Of a DNA stretch of 46,168 nt, positions 100 to 38,246 are shown piece after piece (the stretch's first letter is position 1; every line of letters starts with the position of its first letter). The position numbers and the translations under genes are program-made. The notes below the pieces were generated by a model. That model did no database searches, was not told the origin of the DNA, and saw only the letters and a program-made list of their open reading frames with translations. This DNA comes from an uncultured Zetaproteobacteria bacterium (lineage in GTDB: Bacteria > Pseudomonadota > Zetaproteobacteria > Mariprofundales > Mariprofundaceae), in the NCBI GenBank assembly GCA_964548425.1, contig CAZJRL010000001.1, positions 1-46,168 on the forward strand, read 5' to 3'.

Positions 100-129
100 G
101 GATTTCAGTATAGAACAAAACCTTCTGTC

Positions 130-164
130 TCACCGCGGGGGGCGCAAAGGACGCAGGGTAAAAA
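130..164 (+). repeat. solo arm of the TTCACCGC..GACGCAG repeat family (plus orientation)
   Basis: tcaccgcggggggcgcaaaggacgcagggtaaaa matches the arms of the paired elements at 4283, 5246, 6490 and 21136. Confidence 0.7.
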
Positions 165-283
165 CCATAAAATATTTACCGCAACCTACGCACCGAACTC
201 TCCCGGGGAAACCTTAAACCACGAATGAACGCGAATAGGTGCGATATTTGACAAATGTAACATCCTTGATCCATGCTTCAGCT

Positions 284-739
284 ATGGATATCAAGAAAGC
301 CATGCTCGCCGCCATGCAGGAATATCTCCTGCCGGAATTGGAAGGTATTAAATCCGGTCAAATGCGTCTGGAAGCGGGGTTGACCGCTGTCAACAAGCGG
401 CTGGACGATGTGAACCAGCATCTGGCGGATCAGAGTCGGCGCATTGATGAAGTCAACAAGCGCATCGATGCCGTGCGCGAGGAATTGAGTGGCAACATCA
501 ACGCCGTGCGCGAGGATCTCAGTGCCAGGATTGATGCAAGCAACAATCGCATCGATGCCGTTCGCTCGGAATTGAACATTAGAATTGATGAGGGCAACCA
601 CGCAGTTTATGAAACAAACAAACGCCTGGACAAACTCTATGACGTGGTCGTACGTCGGGATGAGCATTCTGCCATCGTCATTAAAATCAACGAAATGGAT
701 CACGACATTCGGGAAATAAAACAGCAACTGGCGGCATAA
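284..739 (+). CDS. hypothetical coiled-coil protein with RID/INAVRxEL 7/11-residue repeats
   Basis: The ORF is 239..739. I prefer the ATG at 284 (MDIKKAM...) to the GTG at 239. The peptide contains RIDEVNK-RIDAVREELSGN-INAVREDLSAR-IDASNNR-IDAVRSELNIR-IDEGNH. No enzymatic motif and no obvious SD were seen. Confidence 0.55.
   Translation: MDIKKAMLAAMQEYLLPELEGIKSGQMRLEAGLTAVNKRLDDVNQHLADQSRRIDEVNKRIDAVREELSGNINAVREDLSARIDASNNRIDAVRSELNIRIDEGNHAVYETNKRLDKLYDVVVRRDEHSAIVIKINEMDHDIREIKQQLAA
440..600 (+). repeat. in-frame tandem DNA repeats inside the coiled-coil ORF
   Basis: atcgatgccgtgcgcgaggaattgag (464), atcaacgccgtgcgcgaggatctcag (497) and atcgatgccgttcgctcggaattgaa (551) sit at offsets of 33 and 54 nt. 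Confidence 0.7.
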
Positions 740-775
740 TCCCATACGCCAGAATCGTTCCTACATCTTTGATTG

Positions 776-798
776 TCCTCTGTGTCCCCTGCGGTGAA
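776..798 (-). repeat. shortened solo arm of the same repeat family (minus orientation)
   Basis: tcctctgtgtcccctgcggtgaa is the reverse complement of ttcaccgcaggggacacagagga. It faces the arm at 130..164 across the coiled-coil ORF. Confidence 0.6.
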
Positions 799-1262
799 AT
801 CCCGTAGGTTGGGTTGAGTGCAGGCTTAGGCATGCGCCGCATGCTCCAACTGTTCCATGGCCCAGGCATTCAGACTTTTCCCATGCTCTGCGAATGCCTG
901 TGCTAACCGCCCATGTCAAGGTTCTTGTTTTTCTTCTGTCTCCTTTGCAGTCCCGTTTTTGGGGATCACTTCAGGGCTGACCTGTGGCGAAATGACACAC
1001 GCATGCGTGGTATGTATTGACCCTGTGACGGGGGTCACCCATATTTCGCCAGTCCTCCCAACAGGACCCGTGGATTCTCTGCCTGGCCCGGCCTGCATAT
1101 AAAGCATGTGAGGGTAACAGGCAGGTCGAAGGGAAAAACGGGAATAGAGGGGAGACACTTTTAACAAGGCTCTGCGGAGTCCGCCATTGATTAGCAATAA
1201 TCCCTGGCATCAGATCGACAACAAGGCTCGTAGAGTCAAATAAATTGAGAGGATATAACAAC

Positions 1263-2543
1263 ATGAAGAAAATGATTTTTTCTGCTGCTGCTTTTGCCCT
1301 CGTCGCGGTTTCCGGCATGGCGCTGGCCCCGACCACGGCATCGGCTATTCCGGCGTTTGCACGCCAGACGGGAGCGGCCTGCTTAAGCTGCCACTTCCAG
1401 GCTTTCCCGGCCATTAACGCCTTTGGCCGCGCATTCAAGATGGGTTCGTTCACCGATGTGGGTGATGAGGCTCTGGTTGAGGACGACAATCTGTCCCTGC
1501 CGGCTGTACTGAATGCTTCGGTTGTGATTCGTGGCGATATGACGAATACGAACCCGGCCGGTGCTGGTGCGTCGACAACAGTGTACAACGTCCCGTCCGA
1601 AACCCCGATCCTGATTGGCGGCCGCATTGGCACCAACAGCGGCGCCTTTATCGAGTTCGCCAATGGCGGTACTGATACCGGTGCAGGCGGTGGTGCAGTC
1701 ACCGTAGGTAACTGGCAGTTCCTGAACTCCTTTGATGTCGGCGGCTTCAAGGTTGGCCTGAGTGCGCACAACTCCGGTTTTGCCGCTTCCGGCATTATGG
1801 AAGTGTCCAACGTGTTCGGTCAGCACGGTGGCAAGTTGGGCGGCAAGTCTCTTTCCGCCATGCAGAACCTGGGCTTCCGTCAGGGCATTCTTGGCGTGGG
1901 CACATGGATCGGCAATGATCTGGGTATTGTGCAGTTTTCCCTGGTTGCGCCTGGCGCCGCGCAGGGTACGAATGTTGGTGGTAAGTTCGGCAAGCTGGTT
2001 CGCGTGATTGCTACGCTGGATGTGGCTGGTTGGGACACCCTGATCGGCTTTACCAACATCAGCGGTTCAGCCGGCAAGACGGTTGCCACTGGTGGCCCGG
2101 GTGAACAGCCCATGAACATGCAAGCGATTGACGTGCAGTTTCAGGGTGACGTGGGCGACATGAGCGTAGGCGTCTATGGTGACTGGATGCAGGCCAATGG
2201 TAGAACCGCTGCCGATGGTAGCGGAAACGGCAACATATTTGGTGTGACAAATGGTGCGAGCAATACAACCAATATCGCCGGTACTGATAGCAACGGTTTC
2301 TCCATCCGTGTGGAAGCCAAGCCACTCGATCGTATTCTGTTTGGTGTTGGCTACGGTTACGAGAAACAGACTACGGCTTTAACAAGCCTGACTGTCAAGC
2401 AGTTTCAGGTTGCCGGGACCTATGAGGTCTACCAGAACTTCGATCTTAATCTGATCTATAACTCCAAGAAAGACGAAGTTACGAACGGTGCGGGTATCGG
2501 CGCAACCGGAACAACAACGCTTGAGTTCGAGGCGCTGTTGTAA
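1263..2543 (+). CDS. cyc2: Cyc2-like fused monoheme cytochrome c / outer-membrane beta-barrel porin (candidate Fe(II) oxidase)
   Basis: The ATG at 1263 follows GAGAGGA (the ORF track starts at TTG 1245). A Sec signal MKKMIFSAAAFALVAVSGMALA is present. A single CXXCH (CLSCH, nt 1380..1394) lies within FARQTGAACLSCHFQAFPAINAFGRAFK. About 380 aa follow that are rich in Gly/Asn/Thr/Ala, show an alternating pattern, and carry no further Cys. A strong terminator follows the gene. Confidence 0.6.
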   Translation: MKKMIFSAAAFALVAVSGMALAPTTASAIPAFARQTGAACLSCHFQAFPAINAFGRAFKMGSFTDVGDEALVEDDNLSLPAVLNASVVIRGDMTNTNPAGAGASTTVYNVPSETPILIGGRIGTNSGAFIEFANGGTDTGAGGGAVTVGNWQFLNSFDVGGFKVGLSAHNSGFAASGIMEVSNVFGQHGGKLGGKSLSAMQNLGFRQGILGVGTWIGNDLGIVQFSLVAPGAAQGTNVGGKFGKLVRVIATLDVAGWDTLIGFTNISGSAGKTVATGGPGEQPMNMQAIDVQFQGDVGDMSVGVYGDWMQANGRTAADGSGNGNIFGVTNGASNTTNIAGTDSNGFSIRVEAKPLDRILFGVGYGYEKQTTALTSLTVKQFQVAGTYEVYQNFDLNLIYNSKKDEVTNGAGIGATGTTTLEFEALL

Positions 2544-2572
2544 GAAACACTCTTCGGAGTATTTCATTTGCT

Positions 2573-2606
2573 AAAAAAGGGAGGCCCTCGGGCCTCCCTT
2601 TCTTTA
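2573..2606 (+). terminator. rho-independent terminator after the cyc2-like gene
   Basis: aaaaaa-GGGAGGCC-ctcg-GGCCTCCC-tttcttta. An additional UUCG-loop hairpin, gaaacactc-ttcg-gagtatttc, lies at 2544..2565. Confidence 0.8.
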
Positions 2607-2617
2607 TCCCACCCTTA

Positions 2618-3530
2618 GGGGTCAGGTCTGCTATTGTACTACACCCCGCAGGGTTCTAACCTTACCGCATGGCCAGGCCGTTACGCATTGAATACGAAGG
2701 CGCACTATACCACTTGACTTCCCGTGGAGATCGTCGGGAAGCTATTTTTGAGGACGATCAAGACCGTCGCCGATTTCTGAGAATTTTGGGTGATGTTATT
2801 GGTCAAATGGGATGGAAATGCCATTGCTATTGTCTGATGGATAATCACTACCATTTGGTGATTCAAACTCCGGAAGCAAACCTCTCCAAAGGCATGCGCC
2901 AGCTTAACGGGGTGTTTACTCAGGACAGCAATCGCCGCCATGATCGTTGTGGCCATTTGTTTCAGGGGAGATTCAAATCTATTGTCGTAGACTCGGATGC
3001 CTACCTTCTGGAGCTATCCCGTTACGTGGTGTTAAACCCGGTGCGGGCAGGTATGGTAGCCGACCCGGCTGATTGGTACTGGAGTAGCTATCAGGCTACT
3101 GTGGGGAGAGAGTCCTCTCCTGCCTGGCTGGAAACCAGGGAATTGTTGTCGTATTTCTCTAGCCATATGGGGATAGCGCAACACAAGTACGCGGCATTTG
3201 TTGCAGAGGAAATGGACAAGAAGAGTATATGGTTGGAAATCAACAGGCAGATATATCTGGGCGATGACGAGTTTGTTGCCAAGGCGCAGAGCAGGGTGAA
3301 AGGCATGGAAAATGATGAAAATATTCCCCGTGTACAGCGCCTGCATCCGCCCGGATCGTTGGCGGAGATTGCCGCACAGTATGAGGGGCGTAATGAGGCA
3401 ATCGTGGCTTGTTATGCAACAGGGGAATATAGCTATTCTGAGATCGCCGAGTATTTTGACATCTATTTTACTACCGTGGGGCGTATCGTGCGCAATGCGC
3501 GAAAAATGGTACAATAGCAGACCTGACCCC
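2618..3530 (+). mobile_element. RAYT/IS200-like unit bounded by a perfect 22-bp inverted repeat
   Basis: ggggtcaggtctgctattgtac at 2618..2639 is the exact reverse complement of gtacaatagcagacctgacccc at 3509..3530. The right arm overlaps the last codons and the stop of the transposase ORF. Confidence 0.75.
2669..3517 (+). CDS. HUH Y1 transposase of the IS200/REP-associated (RAYT-like) type with a C-terminal HTH region
   Basis: YHLTSRG is present. The HUH motif is in DNHYHLVIQT. HLFQGRFKS is present. The catalytic Tyr motif is in SRYVVLNPVRAGMV, followed by WYWSSY. The C-terminus, YSYSEIAEYFDIYFTTVGRIVRNARK, looks like an HTH. Confidence 0.8.
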   Translation: MARPLRIEYEGALYHLTSRGDRREAIFEDDQDRRRFLRILGDVIGQMGWKCHCYCLMDNHYHLVIQTPEANLSKGMRQLNGVFTQDSNRRHDRCGHLFQGRFKSIVVDSDAYLLELSRYVVLNPVRAGMVADPADWYWSSYQATVGRESSPAWLETRELLSYFSSHMGIAQHKYAAFVAEEMDKKSIWLEINRQIYLGDDEFVAKAQSRVKGMENDENIPRVQRLHPPGSLAEIAAQYEGRNEAIVACYATGEYSYSEIAEYFDIYFTTVGRIVRNARKMVQ

Positions 3531-3565
3531 ATCAGCTATTGACCTTTGCCGGTGTAAGCGCTGGA

Positions 3566-4276
3566 ATGCCGCGCATGAAACAAATTTCCCAGCTTCTTTT
3601 TTTTACATCCATCCTGCTGGTGGCAGGTTGCCAGGGTATGCCGCAGATGTTCTGGCCGGTAGACGACAACAAACCGGATTACGCCCGCAGTGGTAAGGAT
3701 ACTCCACGCTCCGAAGGCCGCGCACCATTGGATGTTCCGCCGGAATTGCGTAAGGAAATTGAGGTTCCGATGCCGGACAAGGTGGCGACTGAGGCGGCAC
3801 AGGGCGGTGCGCGGATATCTGCCAGGGAGAAGAAACTCATTGCGGGCAAGGCCGTGAGTCTGGATACGCGGGTGTATGATCAGAGCGCGGCGCATGTGTT
3901 TTCCGCTGTCGTTGATTCAATGACTGCACTCAATATGCCGGTAGAAAGTGTGGATTCGCCCAGCGGTACAATTACCTCGGCCTGGATTCGCCATGATTCA
4001 AACAACACGAATACCTATATGGGCTCGCTCCTGAATGTATTTGGATCAGGGCCGGTGCATACGCGCCATCGCTTTATCGTACGTGTATTTCGCATGAAGG
4101 ATGGCAAGACACAGTTACAAATTCGAACGTTGGCGCAACAGTTTATGGGGCGGCATTGGGCGAATAAGATACTCAAGCGTAAAGCGGCCGATGAATTGTT
4201 TGCTGCGGTGGAAGAGCGTATTGGCGCGCAGATATCCGATGATACGGGAGCATCCCTGCCAACGGGCAATCCATAA
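3566..4276 (+). CDS. lipoprotein of unknown function (weak resemblance to BamC/NlpB-type domains)
   Basis: Signal peptide plus lipobox: MPRMKQISQLLFFTSILLVAGC. The start could be 3539 (TTG), 3566 or 3575. No catalytic motif was seen. Confidence 0.6.
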   Translation: MPRMKQISQLLFFTSILLVAGCQGMPQMFWPVDDNKPDYARSGKDTPRSEGRAPLDVPPELRKEIEVPMPDKVATEAAQGGARISAREKKLIAGKAVSLDTRVYDQSAAHVFSAVVDSMTALNMPVESVDSPSGTITSAWIRHDSNNTNTYMGSLLNVFGSGPVHTRHRFIVRVFRMKDGKTQLQIRTLAQQFMGRHWANKILKRKAADELFAAVEERIGAQISDDTGASLPTGNP

Positions 4277-4282
4277 GCCTTT

Positions 4283-4444
4283 TTACCGCAGGGGTCGCGA
4301 AGGACGCAGAGGAAAAGCAGGAAATTCTTGTAACAAATACCATCTTTATAGCCAACATATCGGACGATACTCGAAGGGTAATAGGGTCGCTTTTTCAATA
4401 AATCAATTTTTCCCTCTGCGTACTCCGCGTCCCCTGCGGTGAAA
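4283..4444. mobile_element. MITE-like palindromic element, copy 1 (between the convergent lipoprotein and trpC ends)
   Basis: The arms are ttaccgcaggggtcgcgaaggacgcagaggaaaag (4283..4317) and tccctctgcgtactccgcgtcccctgcggtgaaa (4411..4444), in inverted orientation. The core is about 80 percent identical to the copy at 6490, in reverse orientation. Confidence 0.75.
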
Positions 4445-4451
4445 TGGATGT

Positions 4452-5240
4452 TTATTCGGTCAGAAGTGAGGTAAGAGCCTTGCCCGGGTCAGGCTGGCGC
4501 ATCAGTGATTCACCAATTAGAAAACCATATACACCCGCTTGGTTCATATAACGGATATCTTCCGGCGTATGGATACCGGATTCAGTGATGATGGTTTTCC
4601 CATACGGAATAGCCGGCAATAGTTCAATTGTTGTGTCCAGTGATGTGGAGAAATCGTGCAGATTACGGTTGTTTATACCGACGAGCTGCGTATCCAGCTT
4701 CAGCGCCCGCTCCAGTTCCTCCCTGTTATGTACTTCTGGCAGGATGGAAAGTCCCATCTCTCTGGCGGTTGCAGTCAGATCGGCGGCCAGTACATCATCC
4801 ACCATGGCCAGAATGACGAGAATCGCGTCGGCACCCAGTGCCCGCGTTTCGATAATCTGATAGGGATCGAGCATAAAATCCTTGCGTAGAATGGGAAGAT
4901 CAACCTTCTTCCGGATATCCGACAGATAGGCATCATTTCCCTGGAAATATTGTTCATCGGTAAGAATGGACAGGCAGCTTGCCCCTCCGGCCACATAGGA
5001 TTTAGCGATGGCCGCCGGATCGAAATCTTCGCGGATCACGCCCCTGGACGGGCTGGCTTTCTTGATTTCGGCAATGACGGTATTTTTATGATCTGAAACA
5101 CGAGCCGTCAAGGCCCCGGTAAAGTCGCACGGCGCATACTTATGTGCGCGTACCAGCATTTCAGCTTCTGTTACACGAGACTTTTTCTGTTTGACCCATT
5201 TGCGCTTGTATGCAGCGATTTCCTCAAGAATCGAACTCAT
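4452..5240 (-). CDS. trpC: indole-3-glycerol-phosphate synthase
   Basis: IAEIKKASPSRGVIREDFDP, EVHNREELERAL and GINNRNL motifs are present, in a trp gene context. Confidence 0.95.
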   Translation of the reverse strand: MSSILEEIAAYKRKWVKQKKSRVTEAEMLVRAHKYAPCDFTGALTARVSDHKNTVIAEIKKASPSRGVIREDFDPAAIAKSYVAGGASCLSILTDEQYFQGNDAYLSDIRKKVDLPILRKDFMLDPYQIIETRALGADAILVILAMVDDVLAADLTATAREMGLSILPEVHNREELERALKLDTQLVGINNRNLHDFSTSLDTTIELLPAIPYGKTIITESGIHTPEDIRYMNQAGVYGFLIGESLMRQPDPGKALTSLLTE

Positions 5241-5245
5241 GATTT

Positions 5246-5437
5246 TTCACCGCGGGGGACGCGGAGGACGCAGAGGAAATTCATAAATGATTGACCATCC
5301 TTTTAATACCGTCACGGAGGTGGACAGTGTTGAAGTTGATGAGAAGCCCCAATGCGGAATGAACCTCCATAGCGGCATGAATGATTTCACCGCTGGTCTT
5401 GTTTAATCTCTGCGTCCTTTGCGTCCCCTGCGGTGAA
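5246..5437. mobile_element. MITE-like palindromic element, copy 2 (fills the trpD-trpC gap)
   Basis: The arms are ttcaccgcgggggacgcggaggacgcagaggaa (5246..5278) and tctctgcgtcctttgcgtcccctgcggtgaa (5407..5437). The core differs from that of copies 1 and 3. Confidence 0.75.
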
Positions 5438-5441
5438 TCCC

Positions 5442-6467
5442 TCATGTTCTTTGGGTAAAGGCGACGAGACTGGCAAGCACCTCCGCCGCCTTCCCGCTAT
5501 CAATGGTTTTGGCGGCAAGGCGTAACCCTGTACTGATACCATCGGACGCACCTGCCACCCATAACGCCGCAGCGGTATTGAGCAGCACGATATCTCGCGC
5601 TGGCCCCTGCTTTCCACCCAGAATATCGCGGATGATAGCGGCGTTGGCATCGGCATCACCGCCAGCCAGTTTATCTGAATTGGCATACGGCATGCCGAAG
5701 GCTGCCGGGTCAATCTCAAATTCACGCAATGGAGCATGTTGCTCAACCCAAATAGCATCGGTGAGGGTGGTCGTGGTAATTTCATCCAGTCCGTCACGGC
5801 CATGGACTACCAGTGCGCGCTGGATACCCAGTTGCTGTAGGGCGCTCGCGACCAGTTTGAGTTTGTCTTTTGCATATACGCCGAGCACCTGATAGCCGGC
5901 ATTGGCCGGATTGGTCAATGGCCCCAGAAGATTAAAGATGCTGCGTACGCCTAATTCGCGGCGTGGTGCAGCTGCATGCTTCATGGCTGGATGATGTGCT
6001 GGCGCAAAGAGGAAGCCGATACCTGTTGTGTCAATGCATTCCGCCACCTGACCCGGTGCAATATCAAGTTTTACGCCCAGGGCTTCCAGCACATCTGCGC
6101 TGCCTGATCTGGAGGAAATGGCCCGATTGCCGTGTTTGGCGACCGGCACCCCTGCTGCTGCTACTACAAGCGCAACGGTCGTGGAAATATTAAAAGTGGA
6201 GGCGCCATCGCCACCCGTACCGCAGGTGTCGAGCAGGCCGGTGCTGCATGGATGAATGCCGGTAGCGGCAGATCGCATGGCACGCGCCGCTCCGGCGATG
6301 ATATCCGGCGTTTCACCCCGGATGGAGAGCCCCATCAACAGAGCTCCGATCTGGGCTGGGGTTCCGTTTCCCTGCATAATATTGCCGAAAACAGATTCCG
6401 CATCCTCCGCACCAAGTTCACCCCCGGCCTGAATCACGCGCAGGGCATCCTGAATATTCATGGTCAT
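5442..6467 (-). CDS. trpD: anthranilate phosphoribosyltransferase
   Basis: GTGGDG and KHGNRAISSRSGSADVLEALG motifs are present. The longest ORF (to 6533) reads through a repeat arm (..ASSASPAV..). I trimmed the start to ATG 6467, which is preceded by GGGAGA. Confidence 0.9.
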   Translation of the reverse strand: MTMNIQDALRVIQAGGELGAEDAESVFGNIMQGNGTPAQIGALLMGLSIRGETPDIIAGAARAMRSAATGIHPCSTGLLDTCGTGGDGASTFNISTTVALVVAAAGVPVAKHGNRAISSRSGSADVLEALGVKLDIAPGQVAECIDTTGIGFLFAPAHHPAMKHAAAPRRELGVRSIFNLLGPLTNPANAGYQVLGVYAKDKLKLVASALQQLGIQRALVVHGRDGLDEITTTTLTDAIWVEQHAPLREFEIDPAAFGMPYANSDKLAGGDADANAAIIRDILGGKQGPARDIVLLNTAAALWVAGASDGISTGLRLAAKTIDSGKAAEVLASLVAFTQRT

Positions 6468-6489
6468 GTCATCTCCCTGTGACAAAAGA

Positions 6490-6652
6490 TCCACCGCAGG
6501 GGACGCGGAGGACGCAGGGTAAAAGATTGGCATAATTAAAAGGCTGCCCTGTCACCCTTCGAATATCGTCTGATATGTTAGCTATAGGGGGACATTTGTC
6601 ACAAGAGCTTTCCTGTTTTTCCTCTGCGTACTCTGCGTCCACTGCGGTGAAA
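6490..6652. mobile_element. MITE-like palindromic element, copy 3 (fills the trpG-trpD gap)
   Basis: The arms are tccaccgcaggggacgcggaggacgcagggtaaaag (6490..6525) and ttcctctgcgtactctgcgtccactgcggtgaa (6619..6652). Confidence 0.75.
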
Positions 6653-6655
6653 TGT

Positions 6656-7222
6656 TTATAGACTGACATTAAGAAAATTTTGCAATAATTGATGGCCATG
6701 TTCGGTAAGAATTGATTCGGGATGGAATTGCACACCGAATGTCGGGTGTTCCACATGCATAAGCCCCATCAGTTCGTTCTCATCCGTCCATGCGGTTCTT
6801 GTCAGTATATCCGGTAACGGTTCCTCAACAATCAGCGAGTGGTAACGGGTTGCGGTGAACGGAGAAGGGATACCTTCCAGAATGCCACGACCATCATGTA
6901 TCATCGGGCTGGTCTTGCCATGCATCAGGCGCGGAGCACGCACGACGCTACCGCCAAAGGCTGCCGCAATGGATTGATGGCCGAGGCAAACGCCAAGGAT
7001 GGGGATGCGGCCTGAGAATCGTTTGATGACATCCACGGAAATGCCCGCTTCGCGGGGTGTGCACGGACCCGGCGAAATCACGATATGGGAGGGTGCCATG
7101 GTACCAATGTCTGCCAGTGAAATTTTGTCATTGCGTCGCACTTCCGGTGTTTCGCCCAGTTCTCCAAGATACTGCACCAGATTGAAGGTAAAGGAATCGT
7201 AATTGTCGATCACCAGAATCAT
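6656..7222 (-). CDS. trpG: anthranilate synthase component II (glutamine amidotransferase; TrpG/PabA type)
   Basis: [23 protein letters not shown] is present, with the catalytic Cys in GVCLGHQ. The gene overlaps trpE by 4 nt. Confidence 0.9.
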
Positions 7223-8670
7223 GTGTCACCTTCTTCCGCAACGGTTCCGGCTCGGACCTGTGCTTCGGCCAGCGCAACCGCACGAAACATGGCCGTGGCC
7301 TTGTTCACACATTCCCTGTGTTCATTGGCAGGGATGGAGTCGGCGACAATACCCGCACCTGCCTGGATGTGCACCTGGCCGCCATGAATGACCGCCGTAC
7401 GGATGGCGATAGCCGTGTCCATCCGCTCGCCACCGAAACCGATATAGCCGACACATCCGGCGTACGGACCCCGTGCCACCGGTTCGAGTTCACGGATAAT
7501 TTCCATGGCACGTACCTTCGGTGCACCGGAAACCGTACCTGCCGGAAAAGTGGCTGCCAGCAAATCAATGGCATCCACATCCTCCCGCAGTTCTCCCTCG
7601 ACCTGGGATACGATATGCATCACATGCGAATAACGTTCAATAGCCATGGATTCAGTCAACCGGACCGAGCCATACGCACATACCCGGCCCAGGTCATTGC
7701 GCCCCAGGTCCACCAGCATCACGTGCTCGGAACATTCCTTGGCATCGGCCAGCAATTCCGTTTCCAGGGCCTTGTCTGCATCAGGTGTGGCACCCCTCGG
7801 ACGTGTGCCTGCAATGGGGCGGACCACGGCCTTGCCACCTTCGCGCCGGACCAGTATCTCCGGCGATGATCCAACCAGAATGGTATCGCCAATATGCAGG
7901 TAGAACAGGTAGGGGGATGGATTGATATGGCGCACGGCACGATAGATGTCAAACGGATCACAGGCCAGTGATTTGGAGAAGCGTTGCGATAATACCACCT
8001 GAAAAATATCACCGGCATGAATGTATTCCTTCGCTTTGGCAACAGCAGCTTCGAAATCAGCTCTCGTAGTTTGAGCCTTTGGCGCCACGTTTCCGGAAGC
8101 TATCGTATCCAGATTCATGGCCGCGGCTTCCTCACCTTCGTAAAGGCTTTGTTGCATGCGATCAAGTACGGTGGCTGCTTCATCGCCTGCATGTTTCGGC
8201 AGGCGTACGCAGCATGTTAAGGTGCCGCGCAAACTGTCGAATACCATGAATCGGTCCACCAGCAGGAAGGCTGATTCCGGCGCCCCGACGGGATCGGGCA
8301 AATCATCCGGGATATTCTCAAAATGCGAAATCAGTTGATAGCCGAAATAGCCGACAGCGCCGCCGGTAAAGGGCAAGTCATCAGCGGTCAGTGATGGCTG
8401 TGCAATAACTGCCTGCCGCAGCCATTCAAGGATGTTACCGGAAAAATCCTCGTTCCTGCCATCACGATAGATCAGGTGGGTGTGCTCTCCGTGCACTGTA
8501 GCGCGGCAGGCAGGACTGATGGCGAGTATGCTAAAACGGCCCCAGCGTTCCCCGCCTTCCGCCGACTCAAGCAGAAAGCAGTCGCCGCGACGCAAGAGAT
8601 GGGAAAACACGCCCGGCGGCGTTATGCAGTCAGTTGATAAAGTACGGCGAAACAGGTGGTAATTATTCAT
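7219..8670 (-). CDS. trpE: anthranilate synthase component I
   Basis: This is a chorismate-binding enzyme with [19 protein letters not shown] and GAGIVADS. It lies directly upstream of trpG. Confidence 0.9.
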
Positions 8671-8745: not shown

Positions 8746-8821
<76 letters not shown>

Positions 8822-8868: not shown

Positions 8869-8970
8869 ATGCGGGGCGGGCATGATTAAACGACCCCGAA
8901 GCAAGCAGCGGGGTGTTTGCCTTCTTGCATGCTGCGTGCAGGCAAGGATAACAACCAAAATCAAAATTAC

Positions 8971-8992
8971 TCACCACAGAGGACACGAAGAA
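8971..8992 (+). repeat. variant arm (TCACCACAGAGGACACGAAGA) of the periodic repeat superfamily
   Basis: It has the same CACC-N-CAG-(GGAC-N-C-N-GA) architecture as the TTCACCGCAGGGGACGC arms. A loosely related inverted partner, ggcttcatgaccttcatggta, lies at about 9027..9047. Confidence 0.4.
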
Positions 8993-9089
8993 TAAATCCG
9001 GGAGTAAAAACCCCTTGGTTTTAATGGCTTCATGACCTTCATGGTAAAAAAGTCCTGTGCGTTTTGCATGAGATTTCACTACCAAGAGG

Positions 9090-11006
9090 CTAAAACCGTG
9101 CCAGAATGTCCCGATGAATTTTAATCTGATGACGGGCGCGAACGGATGCCATCCAGCGGGCGAAACGAACCGCGCCTTTGGATTTGACCAACTCTGAACG
9201 AATACCGTTCGCCTGTTCGGCGAATTTTTTATCATCCGCCACAATCACACGTTTAACCTGTACAACGGCAAAACCCTGCGGTACTTCAAGAATATGATTT
9301 ACAATTTGGCCCGACGGTGTGATGAAAGCTGCCTGCAGTACATCTGAAGTAAGCCATGTTGCATCCGTATCGCCTACGCCATTACTGCGCACGGGTTTGG
9401 ACAGGTAAAGTGCCTGACCATGTTGTTGACCCAGCTTGTCCAGAGGCATATGCCCGGCCTCCTTCAGCAGCGATTCCGCCTGTCGGCGCGCGGCGTCATT
9501 TGCCGCCTGCCGGCGCACAGCGGCATAGACTTTTTGTGTGACCTTGGCGAAGGGTAAAATAGCGGGTTGCTGACGTTCCAGCACTTCAATGGCGGCAAAG
9601 CGGCCATCTCCCAGTTCCGTGACATCTACGGGAGCACCGGGGCGGGCGGAAAATATCTGTGAACGGAAGGCGGCATCTTTGGCAAAGAGCGGATCCGCCA
9701 GCGCCTCGTCCATACTGAGAGAATTAATTTCGCGCACCTGCATATTCAGGCTTGCGGCAGCGGCCTTGAGACTGTCTTCACGGCCCAGCGCATCATCCAG
9801 GTCCTGCGAAAGTTTGTAGGCTTCCTCATCTGCTTTGGCGCGCGCCAGTTGCCGGCGCAGTTGATCCTGTACTTCAGTCAGCGGTTTTGTTCTTGCCGGT
9901 TTGATATCCGTCAAACGAATAATATGAAATCCAAATGGCGTCTCCACAATGCCGCTTGTCTCGCCCTGTTGCATGGAGAATACGGTTTTATCAAATGCCG
10001 GCACCATTGTACCCTGTGTAAAATAACCCAGGTCACCCCCCTTTTTGGCCGTGACATCATCCGAGAATTTTTTGGCAACTGCTGAAAATGCCTTACCGGA
10101 TTGAATTCGTTGCAGGGCTTTTTCAATCCTGGAGCGTGCCAGTTTACGCGTGTCGGCATCTGCATTTTTGGCAACCCGAACAAGGATATGGCTTGCCCGC
10201 CGTTGCTCCGGCCGGGTCAACTGATTCTTGCGTTCTTCATAAGCGGCATGGATGTCCGCATCGTCAATTTCCATATTTTTGGCAATAACAGCAGGATTAA
10301 TCGTCACGACGGCCAGCTTGAGACGCAGGGGGGACCGATAGCTGTTTTTGTGCTTGTCATAGTATGTGCGGGCATCTCCGGCACTGATTTTGATGCCGGG
10401 TTCAATATCCAGCGGACGCACAATCAGGGCAGCCATCTCACGTTTTTCATACTCATTCTCAAAGCGTTTACGCACCTCCGCATCCGTAGCGGTCGCGCTG
10501 TTTGTGATTGCTTTCTGCAATGCATCTACCATCATATCCAGACGCAAATTTGTTTCATAGTCCGCGGGGGTGCGAAATCCCATATTGCGGGTAAGTATTT
10601 CATAACGGCGGGGGTCGAAATTGCCTGCTGACAGGAATGCGGGATTGCTGCGCACCCGGGAAAGCAGCACACTTTTGGGTGCAACCAGGCCCATGCTGTC
10701 AGCTTCATCGAGCATCAGATGGCGATTGATAAGGGTTTGCAGCGTTATCTGCTTTACCCCCATGCTTTCCATGGCTTTTTTGGAAAAGCTCTTGCCAAGT
10801 GCAGCACGGTAGTTGTTCACCTGGCGTTCATAGGCCAGATAAAATGCGGAATCGGATATCGGATTGCCATCCACTTCAGCAATAGTCTGGACGCGTGACC
10901 CCATAAAATAATCACCGACGCCCCAAAGAACAAAGGACAGAGCAACGCCACCCAGAATAAGTTTTGCCAGCCATGACTGGGCATGATTGCGCATATTTTC
11001 CAGCAT
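9090..11006 (-). CDS. ppiD: periplasmic chaperone / peptidyl-prolyl isomerase PpiD
   Basis: There is an N-terminal membrane anchor (AKLILGGVALSFVLWGV), a SurA-N-like region, and a parvulin domain (ASHILV...GGDLGYF...FGFHIIRL). Length is 638 aa. Confidence 0.85.
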   Translation of the reverse strand: MLENMRNHAQSWLAKLILGGVALSFVLWGVGDYFMGSRVQTIAEVDGNPISDSAFYLAYERQVNNYRAALGKSFSKKAMESMGVKQITLQTLINRHLMLDEADSMGLVAPKSVLLSRVRSNPAFLSAGNFDPRRYEILTRNMGFRTPADYETNLRLDMMVDALQKAITNSATATDAEVRKRFENEYEKREMAALIVRPLDIEPGIKISAGDARTYYDKHKNSYRSPLRLKLAVVTINPAVIAKNMEIDDADIHAAYEERKNQLTRPEQRRASHILVRVAKNADADTRKLARSRIEKALQRIQSGKAFSAVAKKFSDDVTAKKGGDLGYFTQGTMVPAFDKTVFSMQQGETSGIVETPFGFHIIRLTDIKPARTKPLTEVQDQLRRQLARAKADEEAYKLSQDLDDALGREDSLKAAAASLNMQVREINSLSMDEALADPLFAKDAAFRSQIFSARPGAPVDVTELGDGRFAAIEVLERQQPAILPFAKVTQKVYAAVRRQAANDAARRQAESLLKEAGHMPLDKLGQQHGQALYLSKPVRSNGVGDTDATWLTSDVLQAAFITPSGQIVNHILEVPQGFAVVQVKRVIVADDKKFAEQANGIRSELVKSKGAVRFARWMASVRARHQIKIHRDILARF

Positions 11007-11180
11007 AAAAATCCCCGTTGAAAGCCAATGAATTTGCTATTGAATGGATGTGGGACACTACTCAAGGGCGTGTAGTCACGCAATAAAGATATGGTGTAAC
11101 AACTCAGCACCCCTATGCAAAGCTCCGCAACTGCTCAGATTGCCTGGATTTCCTCTGTCCCGCCTTCGCGGGATTGCATG

Positions 11181-11205
11181 TCCTCTGTGTCCTCTGTGGT
11201 GAGAA
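11181..11205 (-). repeat. variant repeat arm (tcctctgtgtcctctgtggtgagaa)
   Basis: It is the reverse complement of ttctcaccacagaggacacagagga. A further tcctctgt copy lies at 11151. Confidence 0.5.
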
Positions 11206-11247
11206 AAGGTTTTATCTGTGCATATCCGCGTTCATCTGTATCGCATT

Positions 11248-11274
11248 CATTCGCGTCATTCGCGTCATTCGCGG
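11248..11274. repeat. 3 x 9-bp tandem repeat (cattcgcgt/cattcgcgt/cattcgcgg)
   Basis: I read this directly from the sequence. A related ccacgaatgaacgcgaatagg lies at 219..239 in the opposite orientation. Confidence 0.8.
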
Positions 11275-11386
11275 TTCGCTTGAAGCGTTTTGATTGTATG
11301 AGAAAGAACAGAGAAAGGTCAAGGACGAACCACGAATGTGTTTCAAAAGCTTGCAAGATCGCATGGTCTGACGTGGAATAGGGGCT

Positions 11387-21100: not shown

Positions 21101-21135
21101 CAGTCGGGAACTCTTGAATAACAGAATTAAAAACA

Positions 21136-21282
21136 TTCACCGCAGAGTACGCAAAGTTACGCAAAGGAACCCCAAAATGGGCAAATTCCGGAGGCTGAAT
21201 ATACATTCAACCGTAGGTGTAAGAGCCCTGGACTTTATATCGCGTCTTTACTCTGCGTAACTTTGCGTACTTTGCGGTGAAA
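21136..21282. mobile_element. MITE-like palindromic element, copy 4 (downstream of smc)
   Basis: The arms are ttcaccgcagagtacgcaaagttacgcaaagga (21136..21168) and ttactctgcgtaactttgcgtactttgcggtgaa (21248..21282). Confidence 0.75.
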
Positions 21283-35889: not shown

Positions 35890-37037
35890 GCATCACACCT
35901 GAATCATCGCGTATGAAGCCATTGGCACCTGCTGACCCCGTGATGGCTGCAGGCGTGCTGCTGCTGGCTGCGGCAAGCATGGTGATGGTCGCCAGCGCCA
36001 GTATGAGCATCTCCGAAGTACGTTATGGTGATGCTTACCGGATTATCAGTCACTGGCTGATCTACATGCCACTGGGCCTTGTACTCATGTGGTGGATGTC
36101 ACGCATTGAGGTGGACTGGTGGAGGGCGGCTATTTTGCCCCTGTTGGGGTTTGCTCTGTTATTGATGGTGATGGTTCTGGTGCCGGGTATCGGCACGGAC
36201 ATCAATGGTGCAAGGCGCTGGTTTTCCCTGTTTGGCCTGACGTTGCAGCCGGTGGAATTACTCAAGCCCGTCCTGATCATTTATATGGCTTATTACATGG
36301 CGTGTTTTCCTGAACGGCTGAAACATTTTTCGACCGGACTGGCACCGATGCTGGTGATTCTGCTTGTCTCCGTACTGTTATTGCTGTTGCAGCCGGATTT
36401 CGGAAATGCAGCATTACTGGTGGCGCTTTGCCTGTGCATGTGGTTTGCGGGAGGTGTGCCGATGCGGCATATCATGGTTTTATTTGCCGTGATTGTTCCT
36501 GTCGGTGTGGTGATTCTGCTGGCCGAACCCTACCGTATCCGGCGTTTGCTGAGTTTCATGGATCCGTGGGCTGATCCGCTGGGAAGTGGCTACCAGTTGG
36601 TACAATCCATGATTGCCTTTGGTGCGGGTGGATTGCATGGCGCAGGTCTTGGCCAGAGTGTGCAGAAACTCTTCTATCTGCCTGAGCCGTTCACCGATTT
36701 TATTAGCTCGGTTCTGGCTGAAGAATTCGGTCTTGCCGGAACACTTTCCCTGATTGCCATATTTGGCATTGTTCTGTGGCGCGGCATGCGGCTGGCTCAC
36801 CATGTCAAAGATGCGTATCAGCGGATGCTGGTGCTGGGATCGGTGACGATTCTGGCCGTTACGTTCCTGATTAATATGGGTGCGGCCATGGGTATTATGC
36901 CGACCAAGGGCATGCCGATGCCATTGATGTCCTATGGTGGCAGCGCGTTGTTTGGCTCCTGCATATTGCTGGGGCTGATTTTCTCCGTGCAGCGCCATCT
37001 CCCGGAAAATATGCGAAAGAAAGGGGTCAGGTCTTGA
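35886..37037 (+). CDS. ftsW: SEDS-family peptidoglycan polymerase / cell division protein FtsW
   Basis: The protein is polytopic and contains PTKGMPMPLMSYGGSA. There is an ATGA overlap with murD. The last 6 codons and the stop lie in a REP arm. Confidence 0.92.
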   Translation: MSITPESSRMKPLAPADPVMAAGVLLLAAASMVMVASASMSISEVRYGDAYRIISHWLIYMPLGLVLMWWMSRIEVDWWRAAILPLLGFALLLMVMVLVPGIGTDINGARRWFSLFGLTLQPVELLKPVLIIYMAYYMACFPERLKHFSTGLAPMLVILLVSVLLLLLQPDFGNAALLVALCLCMWFAGGVPMRHIMVLFAVIVPVGVVILLAEPYRIRRLLSFMDPWADPLGSGYQLVQSMIAFGAGGLHGAGLGQSVQKLFYLPEPFTDFISSVLAEEFGLAGTLSLIAIFGIVLWRGMRLAHHVKDAYQRMLVLGSVTILAVTFLINMGAAMGIMPTKGMPMPLMSYGGSALFGSCILLGLIFSVQRHLPENMRKKGVRS

Positions 37038-37103
37038 TTCGCGCACGGATCAGCAGGAAATGGAACAGGTGATGCGCGAATCAAGACCTGACCCCTTTCT
37101 TTC
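37015..37103. mobile_element. REPIN-like perfect palindrome (31-bp arms, 27-nt loop) sharing the RAYT-flank core GGGGTCAGGTCT
   Basis: gaaagaaaggggtcaggtcttgattcgcgca (37015..37045) is the exact reverse complement of 37073..37103. Confidence 0.85.
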
Positions 37104-37121
37104 TTTATTCGGAACGAAAAA

Positions 37122-38246
37122 GTGAAACTGTCCCCTTTTTCCACATCAGGACCTGACCCCTTTCTTTCTTTATGTATTGCCGGGGGCGGTACGGGCGGGC
37201 ATGTGTTTCCGGCACTGGCACTGGCCGATATCGTCCGGAGGCACTGGCCGCATGTACAGGTGTCATTTATTGGCGCCGAGCGTGGACTGGAAGCGCGCCT
37301 GCTCCCCGAACGTGGAGAGGCGGCGCTTTTTCTGACCATGCACAGCGTGCAGGGTGCGGGGTTCATGCAGCAACTGCGTGTGCTTGTATGGGAACTGCCA
37401 CGGGCTGTTTTACATATCTGGAAATACTGGCGGGCCGTGCGTCCGCAGTTGGTGGTGGGTGTGGGCGGTTATGCCAGCGTGGCTGGCGTGGTGGCGGCAA
37501 TTCTGCGCCGTATTCCCGTCGTGCTGTATGAACAGAATGCCGTGCCTGGGCTGGTGAATCGTAAGCTGGCCCGCTTCTGCCAGGGTATTCTTCTGGGTTT
37601 TGCGGAGGCCGCGGATACATTGCCACGGGGCAAATGCAGGCATACAGGGAATCTCGTTCCACAGGCGATACAGGAAACACACTGGCAACCCCATACGCCG
37701 CCGGGGCTGATTGTGCTGGGCGGTTCACAAGGTGCGCAATTCCTGAATGAAACAGTACCTGCAGCCTGCCGCATACTGAAGCGCGCAGGACACCGTTTTA
37801 CAGTGATACATGTGGCGGGAGATGGCTCCGGCAGGAAGAAAATGCTTGCCAGTGCCTACCATGACGCCGGGATTGATGCCGAGTTACTTGGCTTTTGCCG
37901 TGATATGGCTGGCCTGTACGCCAAAGGTGATCTGATGATTGCCCGCGCAGGCGCCATGAGTGTCACCGAGGCTGCTGCGGTGGGAATGCCGGCCATCTTC
38001 GTGCCCCTGCCACACGCCGCAAATGCGCACCAGTATTACAATGCCCGTACCCTGGCGTCGCGTAGCGCAGCCGTCATTATTGATCAGGAAACAGCCACCG
38101 CAGAAGTGCTGGCAAGTGAGATCGGGAAACTCCTGTTTAATGTCAGACAATTAACGTCCATGAGTGAAGCCGCTGCGCAATCCGTTCCCGAACAGGGCGA
38201 AGAAAAAATGCTGGATATGCTGGGAATATGGTTAGGGAAATGCTGA
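37122..38246 (+). CDS. murG: undecaprenyldiphospho-muramoylpentapeptide beta-N-acetylglucosaminyltransferase
   Basis: The G-loop is IAGGGTGGHVFPALALA, with the typical C-terminal half. GTG 37122 is the only canonical in-frame start after the stop at 37089. Codons 10-17 (GPDPFLSL) therefore come from the REP copy. Confidence 0.88.
   Translation: MKLSPFSTSGPDPFLSLCIAGGGTGGHVFPALALADIVRRHWPHVQVSFIGAERGLEARLLPERGEAALFLTMHSVQGAGFMQQLRVLVWELPRAVLHIWKYWRAVRPQLVVGVGGYASVAGVVAAILRRIPVVLYEQNAVPGLVNRKLARFCQGILLGFAEAADTLPRGKCRHTGNLVPQAIQETHWQPHTPPGLIVLGGSQGAQFLNETVPAACRILKRAGHRFTVIHVAGDGSGRKKMLASAYHDAGIDAELLGFCRDMAGLYAKGDLMIARAGAMSVTEAAAVGMPAIFVPLPHAANAHQYYNARTLASRSAAVIIDQETATAEVLASEIGKLLFNVRQLTSMSEAAAQSVPEQGEEKMLDMLGIWLGKC
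37150..37173 (+). repeat. third REP copy (direct repeat of the right arm)
   Basis: gacctgacccctttctttctttat at 37150..37173 is identical to 37085..37108. Confidence 0.85.

Follow-up and report, generated by a model that had tools for sequence, protein, structure and literature searches.

We analysed a stretch of 46,168 nt (hereafter the window) from an uncultured Zetaproteobacteria bacterium (NCBI GenBank assembly GCA_964548425.1, contig CAZJRL010000001.1, positions 1 to 46,168), in which three short palindromic elements are inserted at gene junctions of the tryptophan operon trpE-trpG-trpD-trpC. Sequence comparison places these elements in a family of mini-cassettes that crosses phyla, each consisting of two inverted arms and a GxxExxY nuclease gene and lodged at operon junctions. 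They are mobile-element relics of a dispersed family and are not classical MITEs (miniature inverted-repeat transposable elements). The explanation that we favour, with reasonable though not firm confidence, is that the elements are relics of such cassettes, which would be tolerated at operon junctions through a translational relay and propagated by copying initiated by the nuclease. The operon and its three inserts are arranged as follows.

4452..8670, minus strand: trpE-trpG-trpD-trpC host operon (Pfam)
7219-8670, minus strand: trpE, anthranilate synthase I (Pfam)
6656-7222, minus strand: trpG, amidotransferase (Pfam)
5442-6467, minus strand: trpD, anthranilate phosphoribosyltransferase (Pfam)
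4452-5240, minus strand: trpC, indole-3-glycerol phosphate synthase (IGPS; Pfam)
6489..6652, no strand assigned: element 3, arms 6489-6524 and 6616-6652; trpG-trpD junction
5245..5438, minus strand: element 2, arms 5245-5281 and 5403-5438; trpD-trpC junction
4281..4446, no strand assigned: element 1, arms 4281-4317 and 4409-4444; between the trpC stop (4452) and the stop (4276) of a convergent 245-aa open reading frame (ORF)

The inserts at the trpG/trpD, trpD/trpC and post-trpC junctions thus span 6489-6652, 5245-5438 and 4281-4446. A prediction made beforehand from the window alone had located all three to within 2 nt. It had also held that every intercistronic gap is filled, which is true of trpG/trpD and trpD/trpC; trpE and trpG keep their ancestral 4-nt overlap with no element in between. 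The distances that it gave from the element ends to the trp stops and starts are correct. So are its placement of the GGGAGA Shine-Dalgarno sequence of trpD outside element 3, and of a GGTGA 6 nt before the trpC ATG. The long trpD ORF (5442-6533) is an extension generated by the arm, as it had proposed, and the N-terminus is false: orthologues begin MSMNIQ.

The arms of all pairs are 30-39 nt long and 85-91% complementary, for instance 39 nt at 85% for 4278-4316/4409-4447 and 30 nt at 90% for 5246-5275/5408-5437. Arms of different window elements cross-match at 84-90%. The arm consensus has six matches here with up to 3 mismatches and none in 100 dinucleotide shuffles, and an arm profile recovers ten arms (E from 1e-11 to 2e-7) together with a solo arm at 11180-11204. 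The design of the window arm is TTCAC followed by three 9-mers CGCRGAGGA. Between their arms, elements 1 and 3 have a common interior in opposite orientation (95 nt, 81%), so that the non-coding interior of element 1, ~95 nt long, is an inverted copy of that of element 3. The arm tips of this lineage, for example 6489-6500 and 6641-6652, read ACCGCAGGGG ... CCCCTGCGGT and carry TCACC/GGTGA. A likeness, seen by eye, of the tips (ACCGCAGGGG, CCTGCGGT, TCACC) to helix 45 and the 3' tail of 16S rRNA (ACCGUAGGGGAACCUGCGGU...GAUCACCUCC) is probably due to chance and was set aside.

We compared the orthologous trp operons of L126, L127, L128, L129, L210, L214 (Ghiorsea bivora), L215 and L219 (the cultured Mariprofundus micogutta). 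The nearest named relatives by TrpD belong to the Mariprofundaceae and Zetaproteobacteria, with 72-83% identity. Five near-identical strain variants (L121-L125) each contain all three elements, and no empty site was found at that depth. In L126 and L127, trpG, trpD and trpC overlap via ATGA or GTGA without any insert. The trpD-trpC junction of L127 reads ...ACGGCATGAGTTCGATTCTTGAGGA and that of the window reads ...GAACATGAG[GGATTCACCGC...GCGGTGAAAAAT]CATGAGTTCGATTCTTGAGGA, where the insert has CATGAG on both sides and thereby regenerates the trpD stop and the trpC start. A neighbour-joining tree built from TrpG+TrpD+TrpC, with Ghiorsea bivora (L214) as its root and L219 left out, has the form (L214,(L129,(L215,(window,((L126,L127),(L128,L210)))))), with bootstrap values of 91-100% at the relevant nodes. 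The trpD-trpC junction is occupied in seven lineages (L214, L129, L215, window, L128, L210, L219) and empty only in L126 and L127, which are nested among them. Four lineages (window, L210, L129, L219) have an occupied trpG-trpD junction, and five (L128, L126, L127, L215, L214) have an empty one, among them L128, the sister of L210. The trp elements are true insertions with presence/absence polymorphism. The original prediction had made such polymorphism among relatives its test in advance, and the empty junctions of L126 and L127 supply it. To produce this pattern, either the same junctions must have been invaded more than once or inserts must have been lost cleanly (or replaced as alleles).

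Across these lineages the trpD-trpC insert forms a decay series. In L129, L210 and M. micogutta it is 430-500 bp long and holds an intact 134-137-aa PF13366 (PDDEXK_3) gene; the PF13366 matches of these positional homologues are taken from precomputed annotation. Remnants of 192 nt and 156 nt are left in the window and in L128, respectively, the latter keeping the C-terminal codons alone. Relics lie in intercistronic gaps of 136 nt (L214) and 112 nt (L215), and nothing is left in L126 and L127. The interior of element 2 matches a small GxxExxY hidden Markov model in two in-frame pieces, positions 5-32 and 112-135 (E = 1.2e-8). In the alignment with L210 it differs by a single internal deletion between two CTTGGC...TTGCT microhomologies, and the remnant is without the catalytic D...ExK region. 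As judged from these alignments, element 2 derives from a GxxExxY nuclease gene through an internal deletion that keeps the frame and is a dead relic, and the short trpD-trpC forms came about through decay in place, not through transposition of a miniature element.

The full-length protein is a member of a large family. The cargo gene of L082, at another locus, matches TIGR04256 ('GxxExxY protein') with 154 bits against a cut-off of 35 (E = 1.5e-45), and the positions of the E in GxxExxY, of the D and of the ExK are invariant or nearly so in 40 diverse members. The AlphaFold model (pLDDT 91.4) has its best PDB fold matches in Cas4 (SSO0001), lambda exonuclease and ACE1, with TM scores of 0.44-0.49. 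The modelled likeness to Cas4 and lambda exonuclease is generic and gives no hint of specificity. A sequence search of the PDB returned no relative, PADLOC a weak Cas4 match at most, and PHROGs nothing. The model is that of a minimal nuclease domain, probably active. The family has 21,000 representatives at 50% identity (E <= 1e-3), or 7,460 at E <= 1e-10; it was found on 8 of 72,556 plasmids and in no phage record of the collection searched. A 2012 survey of PD-(D/E)XK proteins gave the function of GxxExxY/PF13366 as 'Unknown'. Among the top family representatives, P0361-P0372 (266-295 aa) contain two GxxExxY domains in two matched stretches; such proteins may be two adjacent cassettes read as one ORF through their arms.

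At four-fold degenerate sites the window and L210 are 52.5% identical, and their arms are 81-86% identical at the post-trpC site and 58-72% at trpG-trpD and trpD-trpC. The six trp arms of the window are all of the GGGGACGC type and mutually identical at 26-32 of 34 positions. The trpG-trpD and trpD-trpC arms of L210 are of the AAAGTACGC type, and the window arms match these positional orthologues at 20-25 of 34 positions; the post-trpC arms are the exception, with 28-32 of 34. Arm sequence is thus homogenised within a genome. The interior of element 3 aligns with the inverted interior of element 1 with a local score of 46 (background 7-10). With its L210 positional orthologue it scores 10 and is unrelated, though the flanks align, so its content was replaced at a site that already held an element. 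L210, in turn, has a paralogue of its own post-trpC element elsewhere. Together with the absence of abutting target-site duplications and of a G·U strand bias (both below), homogenised arms and replaced content are easier to reconcile with copying or conversion among sites that bear arms than with transposition by cut-and-paste.

The arms are not restricted to this lineage. We scanned one genome per GTDB species for the arm pattern and found at least 120 loci, where ~0.1 matches would be expected by chance (our own estimate, assuming uniform base composition). Among the matches listed are loci in Sulfuricellaceae, Gallionellaceae, other Burkholderiales, Gammaproteobacteria, Thermodesulfobacteriota, Desulfuromonadales, Acidobacteriota, Chloroflexota, Planctomycetota, Verrucomicrobia, Armatimonadota, Bacteroidota and Microcoleus, and, among archaea, in Methanoperedens and ANME-1. 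The family is therefore not specific to this genome, since the arms extend across many bacterial phyla and into the archaea. In the full form the arm is ~34 nt long and purine-rich, and its TTCACC precedes two to six 9-mers in tandem, for example CGCAGAGGA. At most loci two arms lie 10-130 nt apart; in L082 and L083 they tightly enclose intact GxxExxY genes. Clustering of the neighbours of the 120 arm loci listed yielded GxxExxY, in 6 loci, and no recurrent transposase, recombinase or integrase cluster.

The association was also examined from the side of the gene, in 80 GxxExxY genes from unrelated metagenomes, 74 of which had enough flank for comparison with 20 shuffles each. Inverted flanks scored above every shuffle in 57 of the 74 genes (median score 18, against a shuffle mean of 7.4 and a shuffle maximum of 9.5). 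By eye, these flanks are lineage-specific variants of one design, built from units such as CGCAGAG, CACAGAG, CGCCGAG, CACGGAG, CGCAAAG and CACCAAG with a head (T)TCACC or TGAACC. The cassette arms have a median length of 34 nt and a best period of 9 in 31/56, and the arm upstream of the ORF is purine-rich and T-poor in 50/56 cassettes. A full cassette measures ~430-500 bp and comprises an arm, one small GxxExxY gene (125-137 aa) and the reverse-complement arm. Among the 28 cassettes whose flanks were long enough, the neighbouring gene is co-directional upstream in 23 and downstream in 26. In 17 of these 23 a distance of 0-26 nt separates the upstream stop from the left arm, and in 25 of these 26 the next start codon is no more than 31 nt away from the right arm. 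Gap-filling is thus the normal niche of the family. In a metagenome contig (L143, 2434-3268), two arm hairpins bracket ureA-ureB, so the same kind of element occurs at junctions of another operon; an apparent cargo here was rejected, being host ureA and ureB between two separate hairpins. Our literature search, which did not cover curators' database text, found no published description of the elements or of the association between arms and GxxExxY.

Further arms in the window are listed below.

128..799, no strand assigned: inverted arm pair (element 5), arms 128-164(+) and 772-799(-), ~670 bp apart
8966..9062, no strand assigned: decayed arm pair, CTCACCACAGAGGACACGAAG ... CTTCATGACCTTCATGGTAAAA, between a tRNA gene and the 3' end of a 638-aa rotamase (SurA-like) gene (9090-11006)
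11174..11285, minus strand: two tandem solo arm relics, CCTCTGTGTCCTCTGTGGTGA and a variant of CGCGAATGA x3
21135..21282, no strand assigned: element 4, arms a variant of AGAGTACGCAAAGTTACGCAAAGG

In total, the 46 kb contain five arm pairs and relics, with elements of 148-194 bp, and a sixth pair is found a little way outside it, as seen in L121, on the 58-kb JGI metagenome contig of which the window forms part. The copy at 21135-21282, the decayed arms and the loci in other genomes bear out a dispersed family bounded by inverted repeats. Element 4 has arms that resemble the trpG-trpD and trpD-trpC arms of L210 and an interior unrelated to the other elements. The window holds only dead or non-autonomous copies, elements 1, 3 and 4 being ORF-less members. 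At 11174-11285, where the arm profile also found its solo arm, the relic at 11240-11285 is of another 9-mer flavour (CGCGAATGA x3, head GAACCGCG) and adjoins a solo arm of the CACAGAGGA type; these two flavours side by side show that several arm subfamilies passed through the genome. The tRNA gene (8746-8818, plus strand; Rfam 61.7 bits) lies just upstream of trpE and points away from it.

The arm sequences near 130 and 776, which had been taken for half sites, are indeed present and form one inverted pair. It surrounds a 151-aa coiled-coil ORF (284-739, plus strand) and is either a captured gene or else two separate arm relics. As a regular arm cargo this ORF was rejected, on account of its homologues without arms in L216 and L217. 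The ORF has internal repeats of ~33 nt at 427-581, and its family ranges from 95 to 206 aa. One database homologue bears the name 'paREP15, putative coiled-coil protein', and the L217 copy has an upstream TATTTGACAA in common with the window.

Transposition of classical MITEs, that is, non-autonomous derivatives of an insertion sequence (IS) moved by cut-and-paste or copy-and-paste by a DDE transposase that is encoded elsewhere in the genome and acts on the 33-nt inverted repeats, is an unlikely origin. The elements do have terminal inverted repeats, a small size and several copies in 46 kb. Paralogous copies exist, with one interior at two loci, and element 2 is an internal-deletion derivative of an ORF-bearing form. 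However, the original observation that target-site duplications are not obvious extends to 127 elements, among which no abutting duplication was found in general when compared with a permuted control. Abutting direct repeats of lengths 0 to 5 were observed 6/57/47/11/4/2 times against 14.8/59.9/35/11.6/4/1.1 in the control, and CATGAG on both sides is a feature of the trpD-trpC site only. The window is without a classical transposase for these elements, as had been noted, and no transposase family is recurrent near the 120 arm loci listed; the 125-137-aa PD-(D/E)XK nuclease is the sole gene met with regularly between arms. The strict designation MITE does not stand, since the ORF-bearing parent encodes this nuclease and not a known transposase. 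An arm sequence common across phyla and domains is also unusual for IS repeats, and the short trpD-trpC forms decayed in place.

At the RNA level, elements 1, 2 and 3 are predicted to form stems of -68 to -88 kcal/mol with z scores of -5.6 to -6.5, in keeping with the proposal that trp mRNA would carry a stem of ~30 bp for each element. The predicted stem of element 2 buries GGTGA and the trpC AUG. It is quite improbable that such stems were selected by the host for the benefit of the trp operon, whether by stabilising the mRNA, by offering sites for RNase III or by fixing cistron ratios as attenuator-like terminators, rather than being selfish. The stability of the predicted stems would suit this explanation, as would a U-rich tract after the stem of element 3 and the post-trpC arms, which are far more alike between the window and L210 than are four-fold degenerate sites. 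The elements are nevertheless absent from the equally intact trp operons of L126 and L127, interiors are unrelated between positional orthologues, and the same arms turn up in every gene context, unrelated operons included. Arm mismatches compatible with G·U pairing on the transcribed strand are not in excess (76 vs 69, p = 0.62), which argues against selection for a sense-RNA hairpin. At gathering thresholds Rfam matched only the tRNA in the whole window, and at E <= 1 it matched nothing in the region 4200-6750. A promoter and terminator scan gave numbers at chance level, with one promoter-like site (9/12) inside element 3.

The trp junctions do have a property at the level of translation. 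The relay ORF described here is the following.

5281..5445, minus strand: 54-codon remnant ('relay') ORF, MRDSPQGTQRTQRLNKTSGEIIHAAMEVHSALGLLINFNTVHLRDGIKRMVNHL followed by a stop; its ATG overlaps the trpD stop (ATGA) and it ends 40 nt before the trpC ATG

This ORF reads through the left arm of element 2 and is called as a gene by JGI in L123 and L125. In element 3, one mRNA-sense frame (6469-6669, 66 codons) stays open across the entire element and stops 1 nt short of the trpD ATG (6467). An open frame that begins at an ATG overlapping or abutting the upstream stop and runs through the left arm was found at all six trpD-trpC junctions examined, and the same pattern occurs at the trpG-trpD junctions of the window and L210. 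At trpD-trpC, the frames have 38 codons in L128, 39 codons in L215 with an ATGA overlap with trpC, and 45 codons in Ghiorsea, likewise overlapping; in L210 and L129 they are the intact ORFs. The trpG-trpD frame of L210 ends 25 nt before the trpD AUG, and L129 differs at this junction in having two shorter overlapping frames in series. Altogether, 8 of the 9 occupied operon-internal trp junctions examined, all but trpG-trpD of L129, have a relay frame that extends through the left arm and the interior; the distance left to the next start codon is at most 98 nt, and in 7 of them at most 44 nt. The ORF extensions that had been dismissed as spurious are thus generated by the arms, as claimed, and may matter all the same. 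The window's trp-type arms (CGCAGAGGA type) lack T on one strand and A on the other, which makes a stop codon impossible in any frame. Stop-free arms were rejected as a rule for the family, in which stops are mildly depleted, and hold for these window arms. Different family members between them translate their arms in all three frames (SPQRTQS, NREVRRVSQS, FTAKDAKNA); conservation thus lies in the DNA pattern rather than in a peptide.

We see only a slight chance that the elements are REPIN-like hairpin doublets of repetitive extragenic palindromes (REPs), mobilised on single-stranded DNA by a Y1 (HUH) transposase such as the REP-associated tyrosine transposase (RAYT) encoded at 2669-3517. The RAYT gene (83.6 bits with NCBIfam REP_Tyr_transpos, where the cut-off is 80) is ~760 bp away from element 1, the elements are inverted doublets in extragenic positions and show no target-site duplication, and their arm mismatches are symmetric at the DNA level. 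Yet the repeat on either side of this RAYT is another one, GGGGTCAGGTCT(GCTATTGTAC), with a doublet of its own at 37015-37168, and no RAYT homologue was found in the 120 arm loci listed or in the 80 GxxExxY loci. L127 has a syntenic RAYT yet no trp elements, and L210 has all three elements and no RAYT in the 7.5 kb examined around its trp operon. A single arm is moreover a tandem array of 9-mers, not a palindrome, and is without a GTAG/CGTC head. With a repeat family of its own, the RAYT belongs to a second, independent repeat system in the window.

The RAYT itself is a protein of 282 aa with a C-terminal helix-turn-helix-like tail and is syntenic in L127 and L128. Its gene is framed (2618-3530) by a perfect 22-nt inverted repeat, GGGGTCAGGTCTGCTATTGTAC. 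The RAYT-linked repeat has 5 copies against 0.09 expected, and its GGGGTCAGGTC core forms a REPIN-like doublet with perfect 31-nt arms at 37015-37103 and a third copy at 37145-37168. In L123, a strain variant from another sample, a 37-bp tandem duplication of the RAYT 3'-flanking repeat around 3325 (window 3502-3538) is the sole structural difference among the five near-identical contigs.

In L210, a BrnT/BrnA toxin-antitoxin module sits inside an arm element of that genome's post-trpC type (6207-7195). Perfect 22-nt inverted repeats that belong to the module itself (AGCCGATACACAAAGGTGTTGA) accompany it, as does a direct duplication of ~11 bp (GCGAAAAAACC), and the left arm of the element is split by an insert of ~100 nt, related to one in the L128 trpD-trpC remnant. 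That the elements are site-specific recombination cassettes like those of integrons, with the arm hairpin as an attC-like site, an integrase elsewhere and GxxExxY merely as the commonest cargo, is hardly credible: hairpin-forming sites of 64-80 nt do lie between ORFs, tandem arrays are suggested by high direct-repeat scores in L186, L147 and L141 and by the two-domain GxxExxY representatives, and other content (BrnT/BrnA in L210, the coiled-coil ORF in the window) occurs between arms, but the arm termini are TTCACC...GGTGAA with no GTTRRRY-type core, no integrase was found among eight scanned window ORFs (all within 239-8670) or as a recurrent gene in the 120 loci listed, the cassettes stand singly at operon junctions and are not arrayed beside an attI site and an intI gene, BrnT/BrnA is a nested insertion, and the coiled-coil ORF has homologues elsewhere free of arms.

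A cassette invaded the trpD-trpC junction of this lineage at the ATGA overlap, and element 2 is what a deletion between microhomologies has left of it. In the explanation that we favour, the cassette, having no promoter of its own, would be carried on the operon transcript, and its ORF would start, in this lineage, at the ATG that overlaps the upstream stop. Ribosomes leaving the upstream cistron could then read the left arm and melt the 30-bp stem, which would uncover the next cistron's ATG along with the Shine-Dalgarno-like GGTGA. Re-initiating ribosomes would in this way pass translation on to the next cistron, and decayed copies would keep the relay ORF. Propagation would take place at the DNA level without target-site duplication, most likely through nuclease-initiated copying or replacement between arm-bearing sites, in the manner of homing or gene conversion. 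The arms would provide the homology for this copying, which would also homogenise them within a genome. We infer, in short, that the translational relay accounts for tolerance and nuclease-driven conversion for spread. More tentatively, and with a chance that we place well short of even, GxxExxY cassettes could form an unrecognised autonomous class of selfish elements, consisting of a minimal nuclease and two inverted 9-mer arms, in many bacterial phyla and with arm hairpins in archaea. Such elements would parasitise operon stop/start junctions, draw on the transcription and translational coupling of the host, spread or replace themselves by nuclease-driven conversion between sites with arms, and leave behind, in environmental genomes, many MITE- or REP-like hairpins that consist of arms only.

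Several points weigh against these proposals. Nuclease activity and mobility of the cassettes are inferred from sequence, and no intact GxxExxY gene occurs in the window. The majority of arm pairs form short hairpins that carry no cargo and could have a different mobiliser of their own, and they also occur outside co-directional settings (40 co-directional, 15 convergent, 15 divergent). The coiled-coil ORF between the arms at 128/799 exists without arms in L216 and L217. The relay is not general, since arm-only elements that lie between co-directional genes are open in the sense direction in 26/40 and in the antisense direction in 28/40, and the depletion of stops in arms across the family is mild (139 vs 175 expected). 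Behind the 'precise loss' deduced from the tree there could instead be an exchange of alleles, through homologous recombination, between populations that occur together, or site-specific insertion that happened repeatedly. Finally, the proposals give no reason why arms should be almost identical in different phyla and domains.

Relics of nuclease cassettes at operon junctions would nevertheless make sense of several separate observations. They would tie GxxExxY/PF13366 to a fixed DNA architecture and to a niche at operon junctions, which yields a testable mobile-element hypothesis. They would explain the palindromic repeats scattered through metagenome-assembled genomes of many phyla and archaea, the low-complexity ORF extensions of the 'TQRTQR / AEDAED / SASSAS' kind and the two-domain GxxExxY proteins that contaminate gene calls. 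They would further explain how an essential, translationally coupled operon tolerates junction inserts of 150-500 bp. The cultured Mariprofundus micogutta, with an intact trpD-trpC cassette, and Ghiorsea bivora, with a relic, offer experimental handles.

Several known systems have features in common with these elements. Integron cassettes are likewise promoterless single-ORF units with an imperfect hairpin site, transcribed from upstream and sometimes arrayed; they differ in their attC core motif and in their intI/attI platform, neither of which was found here, and the present elements are dispersed singly in ordinary operons. The Correia/NEMIS elements of Neisseria are short, have inverted repeats at their ends, lie between genes with which they are often co-transcribed, and can fold into long stems in RNA. 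With these and other MITEs (less than ~600 bp, terminal inverted repeats, multiple copies) the elements have in common their size, their inverted repeats, their copy number, long predicted RNA stems and one internal-deletion derivative. They differ from MITEs in having neither a target-site duplication nor a parent IS with a known transposase, in their spread across phyla and domains, and in short forms that stem largely from decay in place. REP/REPIN-RAYT systems consist of extragenic inverted doublets without target-site duplication and one small domesticated-looking gene, and are homogeneous within a genome (PMC3116915, PMC3337134). All four features have a counterpart here, but the gene encodes a PD-(D/E)XK nuclease instead of a Y1 HUH enzyme and lies between the arms of one doublet, and the arm is a tandem repeat where the REPIN unit is an imperfect palindrome of 20-40 nt with a GTAG/CGTC head.

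In architecture, the closest match is the intervening sequence (IVS) of 23S rRNA. The IVS of Coxiella burnetii measures 428-444 nt, with a terminal stem of 28 bp that RNase III cuts and one decaying small ORF of unknown function (S23p); its sporadic distribution suggests horizontal spread, and the cut by RNase III is the reason why the insert is tolerated (PMC4990558). By analogy, both would be selfish inserts of ~440 nt in a transcribed unit, with a stem of ~28 bp and a small decaying ORF. A stem of this kind is found in the predicted folds and in the intact cassettes of L082, L083, L129, L210 and L219. IVSs reside in 23S helices 25 or 45, whereas the present elements lie at junctions of protein-coding operons: Rfam found no rRNA in the window, and 0/40 GxxExxY loci are in rRNA. 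The cassette ORF encodes a PD-(D/E)XK nuclease where that of the IVS encodes a four-helix bundle, and the arms are built of tandem 9-mers.

Free-standing homing endonuclease genes, such as the seg and mob genes, are found between conserved genes of phage T4, and homing enzymes of the PD-(D/E)XK type, like I-Ssp6803I, are known. The present elements differ from such genes in their inverted arms and in the ORF-less hairpins that far outnumber the gene, and homing is invoked here by analogy. In their behaviour, however, they resemble free-standing homing endonuclease genes: a small nuclease gene lies between conserved co-transcribed genes, it is present or absent at the identical intergenic site among close relatives, and the content of an occupied site has been replaced.

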